Source: Negaprion brevirostris (taxonomy: Eukaryota). Taken from it: a stretch of 62,060 nt of DNA. The position numbers and the translations under genes were made by a program. How positions within the stretch are numbered: position 1 is the stretch's first letter; every line of letters starts with the position of its first letter. The stretch spans positions 27,699,497 to 27,761,556 of the forward strand of contig JARDVH010000115.1 of NCBI GenBank assembly GCA_030324005.1, read 5' to 3'. The notes under the pieces were generated by a model. The model was not told the DNA's origin. It made no database searches and worked only from the letters and a program-made list of their open reading frames with translations. This document shows, in pieces, positions 26,770-35,735 of this stretch.

Positions 26770-27174
26770 AGACCATTAAAAAGGTATGGAGGCATTGAAG
26801 ATGATGCCAAAAAGATTTACTGAAATGAAACAAGCACAGAAGTTATACCCTTCAGGGTAGGTTAAACAGGTTCTTCCTGGTAAAAGGAAAGCCAAAGAGG
26901 CAACTTCATTAAGGTCTTACTATTATGGTTTGATCAGGTATACTTTAAAAAATGTTCCCCTTTGCAGATGAGAATAGAAATAGGAGTCATCTAATAAAAA
27001 CAATGGAGAAATCAGGGAAAACAACTTTACCCAGAGAGTGGTTAGAACATGGAACGTGCGACTACAAGATGTAGTAGAAAGATGTGTTGATGGGGTTAGA
27101 TGAAGAGGGGCAGGAGGTGGTTCATGCAGACAGAAACACCTATAGTTTTGTTGGGTCAAATAATCTGTTTGTGA
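26770..27174 (+). mobile_element. CR1 3' fragment; host of the U2-derived insertion
   Basis: Contains aactttacccagagagtggttagaacatggaac (FTQRVVRTWN). The tail resumes at 27478. Confidence 0.75.
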
Positions 27175-27477
27175 CCTTTTGGCTCAGATCAAGTGTAGTG
27201 TCAACATGCTGCACTTGGTTGAAGTCATTAGGTCACATTTCAGCTTCATTTGAAGCAATTTTTTAAAGCGGCATCTGGGCCTTTTGGCTAAGATGCAAAT
27301 TAGATCAAGCCNNNNNNNNNNNNNNNNNNNNNNNNNNNNNNNNNNNNNNNNNNNNNNNNNNNNNNNNNNNNNNNNNNNNNNNNNNNNNNNNNNNNNNNNN
27401 NNNNNNNNNNNCCAACTTGTTGGGACTCTGAATTGGCTTTAATTTGACTTGATTGGATTGGAATAAAGTTTAAAAAA
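27175..27477 (+). mobile_element. U2 snRNA-derived retroposed element with a 13-bp TSD
   Basis: U2 nt 13-37 at 27175-27199 and U2 nt 4-27 at 27271-27294. AATAAA at 27462, then an A-tail. TSD aatctgtttgtga at 27162-27174 and 27478-27490. Confidence 0.8.
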
Positions 27478-28683
27478 AATCTGTTTGTGATGTAAATAAT
27501 TTGTAGAATATTTGCTATCCCTTGATCACTTGATTTTGAGTAACCTCTTGGATGATTCAATACTGTTTCAATTTCCTCTTATCTGCTTGTTGCAGAAATG
27601 CTTTAAAATAAATACTTGACATTTAAGATTCCCTGTGGCCTAAACTCATTTTTAATTTTAGGTTTTCTGACTAGTTCCTGGGTCCCTTTCATCATTTTTT
27701 TTAAAACACTCATCTCGCTTCATTGCACTACCCATTATGAACAATCTATCCTTTTGTCCTTTTTTCCTACATTACTTCAAGTGTTGTCCAGACTGACCTT
27801 TTTTCCTCTACTAATCTTCATCTTTTCTGGAGTCTTTTCTTGCAGTGCTTAGTGTTAGTGAACACAAGCTCATTTTCCTTCAATGCTTTATACTCCAAAC
27901 AGTGCTGTTCTCACTTCTTATCCTCACAAAATATGCCTTTTGTCATTTAATCTTTTCTGCCTTCCATCCTATCACAGACCTTCTTTGGTTCTCCCCACCA
28001 TCTCCCCTTCTCACCCACCACCCAACCCTCACCCCTGCTTTTGTACTATCTTAACTGCAAACATTTTTCCAATTTTAGGAAACGAACTTCAGGAAAGATA
28101 TGTTGCTGGCCTTGGGAGAGGGACAGCATTGATACACCAAAATAAGACCATACTATGACTGAACATGCAAATAATTTTTTTATGGTAATTTTAAAAGCTT
28201 GCAAAATCGTCCAACGAAACCCCAATTAATTATTGAAAAAATACTGAGGTGTAGAAGGGTTCTTTAGCTTTTAGATGTCCATGACAGTGAGATGCAGCTA
28301 ACTTATGAGCAAGAGAACACAGGCTGTGTATGCAATAAAGATGATGTTGACCTCTCAAGATTGTTGCAAATATACTATTAAAAAGTATGGTGTCTTGTGA
28401 TTTTAGTCTTTGAATAGCCTAATTTAATTAGGACAAATAAAACTATTACCAATTTGCTTGAAAGGAAATTAAGTGTTCTAAACAACAACTTTTCATTCTT
28501 TGTTAACATACACTCATCGTTCAGTAAGTTTCCTATACTGACATATCTTGTTTTTGATATTAACTTTTAGCTGCCATTCTTTAGCTTTCGAACACTTACC
28601 TCAAGCAGCCAAGTTAAATTACACACAGACAATAATGCAAAAATAATTTATTTTTGCAGATATTATTATGCAAGATGGAATAG

Positions 28684-29358: not shown

Positions 29359-32020
29359 CTAAGGAAGAAAAAGGGACATTCATCACATTTTTATTAGTCA
29401 TTCAGATATAATCAGATTTTAATTTATAAATCTTCTAAATTTCCAATAATTTGAAAGCCATTTTGCCTACTTCAATTGCATCTCCAGCAAGTTTTGTTTT
29501 TAATCAAAATTCTCTAACCCCTACATGTTCCTAAATCACAATTTTGTAATCAGAAGCTGAAATGTCACTAATGACAATCACAAAGGGTTTAATGAGGGAA
29601 TGGGGGAGCAGTGCATAAGTGGAAAAAATTAAAATTGCTCAACAGTTATCTTGGATAGGAATTTGATTTTATACAGCACATAAACTTTAATGCTGCTTAA
29701 ATTTTATGGACCATCACTATTCTTTCTTTCCCTTAACACACAATTTGGGACAAAACCAATTGTCTTGTACTGCAAATATAGTTTGTGTTTTCACTAAAAA
29801 TGGCACAGGAATACACAGAACTTGATTTGTTTCTCTAGATGAAGTGTGTTCAGCCAAACAATAGAAAACATTTACACTTGTGGTATGTGAAATATTGAAG
29901 TTTGTCTCAAGTATCCGTGCCTATGGGCAGGTCCAGAAATGCTCCACAGAAACTTTTATTTTAAGAAAAATCTAGAAATTAAAAATCAGGCCAGATATTT
30001 AGAACTGTGCCAAATGTTTATCTCCTCAATGCTAAGACAGGCTTGTGGTCAAAGATATCTTTGTCTTTTATTGAACAAGTTACACAAAAATTAAGCTGAT
30101 ATAGTAAAACAAAGAGGAGTTGTAGTTTTACTTTGTATTTTCTTTCTCCCCGTCATTATTTTCAATTTTTACTTCAAACTGTGAGCTGTCATAAGCACCA
30201 GCCTGCAAAATATCTTCCAATGTTACTGAATTTCCATTGCTGAAAAGTTTGACATTGTTGAATTCAAGAAACAGGAAATGCTATCATAATGGTGAACTGC
30301 CAGGTTAAATTGGTTAAAATAGTTTTAAAAAATTATTTATAATAATGCTGCTTAAAACAGCTAGAAAAGTATCAGATTTTTGAAGTGAAGATGCCAATGA
30401 GGCGAATGATCATTTATTTTCTCCAGTATTATGGTTAGCAGATTGAAGCAAATCTCCTTCATGACTGTGTTAATAGAACACATGGCTCCCAGAACTGAAC
30501 TGATCCAGATCTTATTGAAGGTAACAACTTAATACACATTAAATATCCCTGTGCAGCTGTTGAAGTACTTACTAAGTACTTGCACATAAAAATACTTTGT
30601 ATATTCTCTGGAATAAAAATAATCAATTTTAAAAGAATACCAGCCATACAGTTGTAATGTTTGTGTAGTAAACACCAAGCCAATTCAGGTCCAAATAACC
30701 TTGGCCACCAGCAGGCAAGTTTTGTTGATACTCAGTGATGAGTGCCAGGTATGTTGACTGCTTAGTGGCATATTATTCCATTTTCATGTTGAAAGAAGTA
30801 TAAACCAGTTCCACTGAACTAAAAGAAAATCTTCTACTCAAATCTTGAAACCAGCAATGGTGGCAGCAGTAGAGCAGTCCTCTCATACTAATGTAAAAAC
30901 AAACTTACGAAGTGTAGCAGCAGAGGCTATAAGACAGGAATATCCATTTCACCCGAGTTCACAAGTGATTAATCCAGGGGTAAACTAAAGACTGCAGTAG
31001 AAGGTAAAATCTATTTATTTTTGTGGTGTGGCAACTAGGTTTGGCCATTTTCCCTTGCATTTTTTGGCATCAGACAACATGAATGGTATAACAAAAGTCC
31101 TTCCCACTTCAGAAAAAAGATTTCCAGGATTTTCTACTAGAGTTCATTTGTGCTCTCATCCTCCAATATCTAATCACTACGTGCCCATTACAATAAGCCT
31201 CTGTTTTCCAGTAGCAAATAAATTCCTTTGCTCACTGATTTAGGGTAGTATTTTTTTTAAACACACATCAACAAATAGAACTGCTTGGCAGAAATAATGA
31301 ATGAACCCAGGATATTGGGCTCATTAAAAGGCCAGGCTTTGTAATGAAGAATTGACAGTTAGTATTCTAGCTGGTGGATATCAAATGGGCTGAAGACCAA
31401 TTTCCATTGAAAAGAATCTTGTCACCGTACTGCAGTTTCAAATAGAACAAACAACAAATTGAACTGTGACCTGATTTCAAAACAAAGTTTGGAATTTGTG
31501 ACGGAAAATGTGGAGATACACAATATAAAGGAGTAAACATTTGCCTTGAGGGGATAGGATGTTACCTATTCTGTTAAGGCTGCTCCTTGTTTCACAAATA
31601 TACTGGCAGACTTTCAAATTTGCTTCAGTCCTGACATTTTGGCTTAAAGCAAGAAAGTGAAGATGATGGTTGGAGAGCTGATAGAACCGTTGGAAATCAC
31701 AAGACAAATGGTTACAGACCTCATTCTCTCTTCATAGATATTGCCAGACTTGCTGAATATTTCCAGGAATTTTTGCTTTTCTTTTACGAAACCACAAGAA
31801 TTGTACAATCACTCGCTTCTGCGCTCACAATTTGATAGGTTTAAGAAAACCCAATTTTAACAAGCATTGCATGTCAGTTGCTTTATATTATGTGCATCGT
31901 GCCAAGATATAACATCTAAAGACTGAATATAATTCATGGGTGGAGGAGAAGTACGATCCCTTCATTCCCTCTGCCTACCCAATAGTTCCTCATATACTAT
32001 TAACATCTCTACATAAAGGT

Positions 32021-32245
32021 TCCTCAGCCTTTTGGTTAAGATCAAGTGTAGGATCAAGTGCAGGATCAAGTGCGAGATCAGGTGCAACGCCTGTTCTTGT
32101 CTGCTTGGATTTAGTATCTCTCTTTTGTGGGGACCATGAATTGGATTCAATTTGAACTTGGGCTTTGGAGCAAGTGCAAGGAGATGGATTCGGGACTTGC
32201 CCTTTCTACTCTGTGCACTGGCACTGTAACTCTGAGAAAGGAATA
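32021..32245 (+). pseudogene. Near full-length degenerate U2 snRNA-derived element with an internal 4x12-nt tandem repeat
   Basis: Collinear with U2 (recalled): ctcagccttttggttaagatcaagtgtag, ctgttcttgtc, ggaccat, tttggagca, ggagatgga, cttgccc, ctactc, ctggcactgta. The Sm site is degenerate (ggctttgg). Confidence 0.8.
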
Positions 32246-32449
32246 CTTTTTAAAAAAAATGATACACTACTTGAAAATGCAAAAACGCTCCACTGTTTTC
32301 ATTGCAATATTAACAACAAAGCCAAGATTTTGCATTCCAGGTTCAAACAATCATTGTTTACTGTAATCGTTCCATTCTCATGAAAGATTGGAAACTGGTG
32401 CGAGTCAGATAATTCTGGACCTGCTGTAGCACACACACAATTCAATAAA

Positions 32450-35350: not shown

Positions 35351-35549
35351 AGCACATTTTAGTTTACAATAATAGCCCATCCTATCCACAGATAAAAGCA
35401 AAATACTGAGGATGATGGAATCTGAAANNNNNNNNNNNNNNNNNNNNNNNNNNNNNNNNNNNNNNNNNNNNNNNNNNNNNNNNNNNNNNNNNNNNNNNNN
35501 NNNNNNNNNNNNNNNNNNNNNNNNNNNAGCCCATCCTATCCACAGATAA

Positions 35550-35735
35550 AAGCAAAATACTGAGGATGATGGAATCTGAAACAAAAACAGAAAATGCTGG
35601 AAAATCTCAGCAGGTCAGACAGCATCTGTCGAGCACTCTAACGAAGGGTCATCCAGCCTCAAAACATTGGCTCTATTTTCTCTCCACAGATGCTGTCAGA
35701 CTTGCTGGGATTTTCCTGCATTTTCTATTTTATTT
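35550..35735. mobile_element. Fold-back Penelope-derived short element with a decayed hammerhead
   Basis: Arms agaaaatgctggaaaatctcagcaggtcagacagcatctgt and acagatgctgtcagacttgctgggattttcctgcattttct. The centre reads ctaacgaagggtcatccagcctcaaaac. A related copy is at 60590-60755. Confidence 0.7.

Follow-up and report, generated by a model that had tools for sequence, protein, structure and literature searches.

At positions 27162-27490 of the DNA analysed here (62,060 nt from the shark Negaprion brevirostris, hereafter the window), two 5' pieces of U2 snRNA, an assembly gap, a polyadenylation signal and an A-run are enclosed by a direct repeat. The locus raises the question of whether this arrangement is a single chimera or one copy of a retroposon family and, in the second case, how an snRNA-headed SINE without an internal promoter comes to be transcribed. 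The window element is a member of a young, non-coding retroposon family of about 310 nt that is built from U2 (family A), and the window also holds a copy of an older sister family (family B).

The window element and its family

The features of the element, of its host sequence and of the family B copy are as follows.

26780..27161, + strand: decayed 3' end of a LINE, CR1-like, that hosts the insertion (translated left flank)
27162..27174, + strand: 5' target-site duplication, 13 nt (sequence)
27175..27202, + strand: first head, U2 snRNA nt 13-40 (sequence, comparison with the genome's U2)
27206..27232, + strand: diverged inverted copy of U2 nt 13-39 (17-18 of 27 matches, folds)
27233..27270, + strand: remaining spacer with a small hairpin and a T-run
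27271..27311, + strand: second U2 head (nt 4-27), a longer stem and the start of the part apparently derived from family B
27312..27411, no strand: assembly gap of 100 N in place of some 102 nt of the element, judged by intact copies
27412..27461, + strand: 3' body that apparently goes back, by way of family B, to stem-loop IIb and the Sm-site region of U2
27462..27479, + strand: AATAAA (27462-27467) and A-tail (27472-27479) (sequence)
27478..27490, + strand: 3' target-site duplication, whose first two A are common to the tail (sequence, script)
32016..32260, + strand: copy of family B, a diverged U2 of nearly full length that is A-tailed and has its head duplicated internally

Every part that the original prediction had listed (target-site duplications, both U2 heads, gap, AATAAA and A-run) was recovered in its place. 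The 13-nt direct repeat (27162-27174 and 27478-27490), read directly and by script, bears out the claim of a clean target-site duplication. With a numbering that follows the genome's own U2 genes, U2 nt 13-37 are found at 27175-27199 with the one mismatch that had been reported, which arises only against the single-copy-type U2 gene (L105); against the U2 variant of a tandem array (L110-L112) there are 0 mismatches over U2 nt 13-37. The mismatch does not reflect decay, since the window head has the position-23 letter of the tandem-array variant. The second U2 5' copy (nt 4-27) is present at 27271-27294 with 2 mismatches. Identity to U2, which had been said to stop at nt 37, extends to nt 40 in most copies, and the first 27 nt of the approximately 70 nt regarded as non-U2 are in fact the diverged inverted copy of U2 nt 13-39; the rest of the spacer (27233-27270) does not significantly resemble either U2 (361 of 500 shuffles) or family B (80 of 500). 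The window copy is 5'-truncated, full copies beginning at U2 nt 1. It interrupts a LINE that we take to be CR1 from a C-terminal motif in the translated left flank, and no uninterrupted copy of this host sequence (an empty site) was present among the 346 other fetched loci. A search of the full window with Rfam did not recover the element at 27162-27490; its only match, to U2 at 32016-32249, was sub-threshold. Elsewhere in the window, two pairs of short-spaced direct repeats, one of 71 nt at 18265-18506 and one of 54 nt at 35374-35581, each 100% identical, are perhaps local duplications or assembly overlaps.

A 17-nt motif from the tail has at least 575 exact matches genome-wide, compared with 1 for the reversed control, and a first look through the 2.69-Gb genome with the 137 nt that precede the gap yielded 1,955 candidates. 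Forty of these were scored, and the 39 other copies among them are 95-99% identical to the window copy. Full copies are about 310 nt long, start at U2 nt 1, all carry two heads and end in AATAAA and poly(A). In an unbiased set of 90 copies, drawn from the first 100 tail matches listed and not ranked by similarity, family A sequence lies upstream of the tail in 90/90 and an A-run of at least 4 is present in 87/90. Sixty-one gap-free rows cover the whole element; they are 85-100% identical to the reference and show linked subfamily alleles. Where the window has its gap, intact copies carry 102 nt that hold two further hairpins, and therefore the window structure is one element. The 100-N gap in the window copy and in many others could suggest that the structure is an isolated chimeric U2 pseudogene, or that the assembly joined two separate sequences at the gap, yet the gap-free rows, the exact tail matches and the 102 nt at the gap position leave that explanation next to no probability. 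With that many exact tail matches, the structure is also not the single-copy chimera against which the original prediction had hedged.

Target-site duplications of at least 8 nt occur in 13 of the 52 unbiased copies in which both junctions are readable (shuffled pairings: mean 0.85, maximum 4), and duplications of at least 10 nt in 10 of 52 (shuffled mean 0.04, maximum 1); an adjacent duplication of at least 8 nt is absent in 39 of the 52. The duplications and A-tails support the predicted multi-copy, U2-headed, SINE-like family with copy-specific duplications, as well as retroposition of the L1/Tx1 type rather than the CR1 type. A genome-wide preference for U2-like targets, suggested by the window duplication, was rejected, with 2 of 87 unbiased 3' flanks resembling such a target compared with a background of 3.8%. 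Most family A copies are at sites without a U2-like target. A U2-target-like flank start was seen in 4 of 19 young-head and 0 of 34 old-head copies, in a post hoc split of similarity-ranked loci.

At least half of the sampled words of the family are contained in 14 of 24 listed runs, comprising six organisms and four unlabelled runs, and run X20 contains a small share (0.08). The 3' body is present in 82 contigs of run X16 and 104 of run X19, both only guessed to be RNA; in the raw DNA runs X21 and X22, 0 reads fell on this part, which is no test of the element. An assembly gap stands on the 5' side of 37 of the 90 unbiased copies, and short-read assemblies probably undercount and fragment family A. 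One copy (L256) has an inverted, doubled U2 head at its 5' end and resembles a twin-priming or fold-back product.

U2 ancestry of head and body

Full heads are the genome's own U2 nt 1-40, and the junction between head and body at nt 40 is constant across copies. Extra U2 5' pieces, with ends from nt 26 to 58, precede the copies at L013, L027, L080, L196, L298, and L342. The position-23 variant is present in 39 of the 86 heads read, nearly all of them on young body alleles, and also in the array U2 and in three LINE 5' ends; this shared letter suggests that the family A head has been refreshed from the array.

U2 recognises branch points through a sequence within this head, and the inverted copy of U2 nt 13-39 is predicted to base-pair with the head across that sequence. 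The predicted fold of an intact copy has an energy of -115.9 kcal/mol (z = -6.7, 0 of 200 shuffles). One pair in the hairpin derived from stem-loop IIb varies among the 61 gap-free rows (C-G in 37, T-A in 10, T-G in 9, and C-A in 1), and no other pair in these rows has more than three double changes. The variation is probably a single event and lends modest support to selection on structure. Rfam matched copy L018 to U2 with an E value of 2.6e-05, under the gathering score, and on an intact copy no family besides U2 had a useful score; weak matches to snoU2-30 and Afu_191 were discarded, being to the antisense of the head. There is no tRNA gene in copies L003 or L018 and no 5S or 7SL match. 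The missing tRNA gene and the T-runs inside the element argue against transcription by polymerase III.

Family B provides the link between U2 and the body of family A. Its copy in the window scores 27.2 bits against the Rfam U2 model, below the cut-off, and has 2,183 candidates in the genome, with 39 other scored places at 76-83% identity. None of 500 shuffles reaches the score of family B against U2 nt 38-191. The 3' half of family A matches family B with a local score of 76 (0 of 500 shuffles), in line with the predicted relation to the other U2-derived element at 32 kb in the window, and the mid part, from the second head onward, matches both U2 and family B (0 of 500 shuffles each). Compared with U2 directly, the 3' half gives a weak match (10 of 500 shuffles; 231 of 500 for the post-gap window piece alone). 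Since the 3' half matches family B and family B in turn matches U2, the U2 ancestry of the body appears to run through family B, the apparent ancestor of the 3' half. Judged from these comparisons, family A is almost wholly U2-derived. Birth from a junction of U2 with a retroelement, as had been proposed, finds no support, since nearly the whole body traces to U2 or family B and a Tx1 3' end precedes 0 of the 53 unbiased copies with a readable 5' side.

Insertions in U2 genes and the Tx1-type LINE

The genome contains a tandem array of the variant U2 gene (L330:4758-6310, G000 C157) that has a 492-nt unit and is bounded by gaps; its U2 is 84% identical to the single-copy-type U2. Copies of family A lie in U2-array DNA, and some carry array flank along with them. 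An A-run is joined exactly to U2 nt 39 onward at 9 junctions in the genome, compared with 0 in the reversed control. Upstream of these 9 junctions are family A in two cases (L136, L322), a family-B-like sequence in one (L319), Tx1-type tails in four, and sequence not assignable in two. As far as the accessible text of PMC6136364 describes it, this junction is the 3' target of Keno, and it is here that 4 of the 9 follow Tx1-type tails. The link to the Keno site made in the original prediction stands in that family A and a Tx1 LINE do insert there, and is not supported, as worded, as an account of the family's origin.

At L331, one array unit has a Tx1 3' end that runs into U2 from nt 43, and the next unit, beyond the array spacer, has U2 nt 1-39 followed by family A. 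At L297, about 85 nt of array 5' flank lead into a family A element. At L298, what appears to be a duplication encloses a scattered copy together with 42 nt from the 5' flank of the array and one more U2 piece; its RNA began upstream of +1, and it therefore places the copy in an array without indicating initiation at +1. Outside the intact three-unit array, array flank running into U2 +1 is interrupted at U2 nt 35-44 in 7/7 loci, by family A at three and by Tx1-type sequence or an A-run at four; this count leaves out L299 (5 nt of possible array flank), L338 (a gap after the spacer), and L340 (no U2 +1). One of the 90 unbiased copies (L194) is inserted in an older copy at head nt 38/39. The tails at L319 and L322 run on into U2 nt 39-53 and another A-run, an arrangement that would result if a U2-embedded copy gave an RNA polyadenylated just downstream. 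Array units in which the element lies share about 75-88% identity with the intact array and come from small or scattered contigs; they may be dead orphan units rather than today's sources. U2 gene flank precedes 0 of 30 copies selected for a full head from nt 1, which is expected if the RNA starts at U2 +1.

Several other U2 loci were encountered. The whole contig at L106 (G000 C2094) has a divergent U2 gene adjoining a 5S rRNA gene and a run of a 5-nt repeat, presumably of the kind that forms arthropod telomeres, and is possibly from a parasite or contaminant; similar divergent U2 genes are present at L107 and L108. Dispersed U2 retrocopies with the same 3' flank as the L105 gene occur at L113-L118, L130, and L132, and those at L130 and L132 begin at U2 nt 37-39.

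The LINE found at these junctions can itself carry U2. At five loci, U2 5' pieces are joined to a common Tx1 5' region that leads into an open reading frame with a weak match (below cut-off) to RBD_ZCCHC3_2nd, and at one of the five (L337) the full array spacer still stands in front. Of its ORF2 only fragments were recovered, with zf-RVT above cut-off and RVT_1 weak (below cut-off); two other LINE pieces have no Pfam match. An APE-type endonuclease is listed in 6 of 8 homologues of the LINE ORF pieces. These features fit a LINE of the Tx1 type. U2 nt 38 onward follows 0 of the 29 closest other copies of the L140 family, the Tx1 family examined, which is mostly dispersed. This LINE clusters with the SINEs: in 4 of 29 family B copies the preceding sequence is a Tx1 tail, and at L284 Tx1 is followed by two family A copies. 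None of the 90 unbiased tail matches revealed a LINE with the element's tail, 37 of them running into a 5' gap. One further locus (L327:534-862, G000 C84), with U2 nt 1-55, the Tx1 5' region, a 100-N gap, and the family A tail within one apparent duplication, is a tandem or a chimera of LINE and SINE. Another (L343:872-1152, reverse strand, G000 C1) has four stacked U2 5' pieces before the Tx1 5' region.

Possible transcription and spread, and comparable systems

Family A is a genuine SINE-like family, young and derived from U2, and there is evidence that it homes into U2 genes. The presence of copies in tandem U2 genes at a known retrotransposon site suggests that the element borrows the U2 promoter. 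We consider it likely, with a probability of roughly 65%, that source copies in U2 genes, inserted near nt 37-40, are transcribed from the upstream U2 promoter and are spread by a Keno-like Tx1 LINE. RNA polymerase II would initiate at U2 +1 of the interrupted gene and continue through U2 nt 1-40 into the element; polyadenylation would take place at the element's AATAAA or sometimes slightly further, inside the downstream U2. The endonuclease and reverse transcriptase of the LINE would act on this poly(A) RNA without a common tail. Were the endonuclease specificity relaxed, most copies would scatter as promoter-less dead ends, and a few would insert in U2 genes again and serve there as new sources. 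By folding back, the stretch behind the head would mask the sequence that recognises branch points. A fuller account is that independent SINE families made almost wholly of U2 pieces have arisen in sharks, homing with a Keno-like LINE, taking over the external U2 promoter, refreshing their head from the array, and being kept by the fold-back from acting as a false U2; we offer it tentatively, at somewhat short of even odds.

Two other explanations bear on how the heads and the U2 insertions arose. Under template switching, the main alternative, copies would be transcribed from chance host or LINE promoters, heads would be added or refreshed from mature U2 snRNA, and the array copies would be passengers at a favoured site. 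The six loci with extra U2 5' pieces of varying ends would follow naturally from such a process, by which Kojima 2015, in the accessible portion (PMC4494074), accounts for head additions in SINEU. However, mature snRNA has no upstream spacer, yet array flank is attached at L297, L298, and L331; the downstream U2 with a second A-run at L319 and L322 needs a template within a U2 gene; and the head-body junction at nt 40 is fixed. Template switching as the full explanation is therefore rather improbable. It is also conceivable that another L1- or Tx1-type LINE without a preference for U2 moves the element, U2 sites being reached only beside Tx1 tails or earlier copies. The unbiased flanks without a U2-like target, the Tx1 tails before family B and before the paired copies at L284, and a tail that is not common to the LINE are consistent with this possibility. 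Against it, Tx1 sequence is absent from the junction where the element tail is directly joined to U2 nt 39 onward (L136), where a copy lies inside an older one (L194), and where family A directly follows U2 nt 39 (L331), and we rate such a LINE as the mover quite unlikely.

The borrowed U2 promoter and the Keno-like partner can be set against known systems. SINEU-1, -2, and -3 are snRNA-headed SINEs of crocodilians, and the available text of Kojima 2015 (PMC4494074) reports that none was found outside crocodilians and leaves their transcription open. As far as that text describes them, family A resembles SINEU in its U2-derived head and in being a short (<500 bp; about 310 nt in family A), non-coding, poly(A)-tailed retroposon; in heads stacked by repeated 5' addition of snRNA pieces; in an internal oligo-T and the lack of a polymerase III head; and in the lack of a LINE with a common tail, with duplications in part of the copies and tandem insertions. 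The probable Tx1 partner is itself able to carry a U2 head in both cases. Family A and SINEU are each a true family of common structure rather than the sum of independent chimeric retrocopies. Family B, like SINEU-3, is a remodelled U2. In contrast, the preferred target named for SINEU is Mariner-N4_AMi (PMC4494074), whereas family A is found in U2 arrays at the Keno site, with array flank or downstream U2, and bears an AATAAA signal as well as a sequence that folds back over its head. On five descriptive features we regard family A as a variant of the SINEU kind and do not assign it to a named family. We infer that it is independent of SINEU in origin, the two being set side by side by description and not by body sequence.

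We found no report of a shark SINEU in the literature outside subscription journals, Repbase, Repbase Reports, Dfam, and supplements, and the accessible text of two repeat papers (PMC8455134, PMC5499810) has none; Repbase, Dfam, subscription journals, or supplements may hold family A already. If correct, transcription from the U2 promoter would explain how snRNA-headed SINEs can be expressed although they lack an internal promoter, and the explanation is testable, since one genome combines young copies, copies in U2 arrays, flanks on both sides, and a U2-headed Tx1 LINE. With family A, snRNA-headed SINEs would be known from one more vertebrate lineage besides crocodilians, and, given at least six organisms with half or more of the sampled words, the family would provide young insertion markers.

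Keno, an autonomous, coding, U2-specific Tx1 non-LTR retrotransposon that inserts after U2 nt 37 according to the accessible parts of its descriptions (PMC6136364, PMC4640811, PMC4494074), has the same insertion point as family A, and the domains seen in pieces of the junction LINE fit the Tx1 type. Family A differs from it in being non-coding, and most Keno copies as described there are U2-specific, whereas U2 follows 0 of the 29 Tx1 copies here. Utopia, in the available text of PMC4640811, uses the same U2 site, makes duplications in its reptile families, and can be represented by several families in one U2 array; it has a restriction-like endonuclease, and the domains seen in the LINE fragments found here are of the L1/Tx1 type. 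The proposed logic of insertion in a transcribed multicopy RNA gene and use of its promoter is that of R2, an autonomous, strictly site-specific element transcribed by polymerase I together with 28S rRNA genes (co-transcription as cited in PMC4494074). Family A, in contrast, is non-autonomous, mostly dispersed, and likely transcribed by polymerase II.
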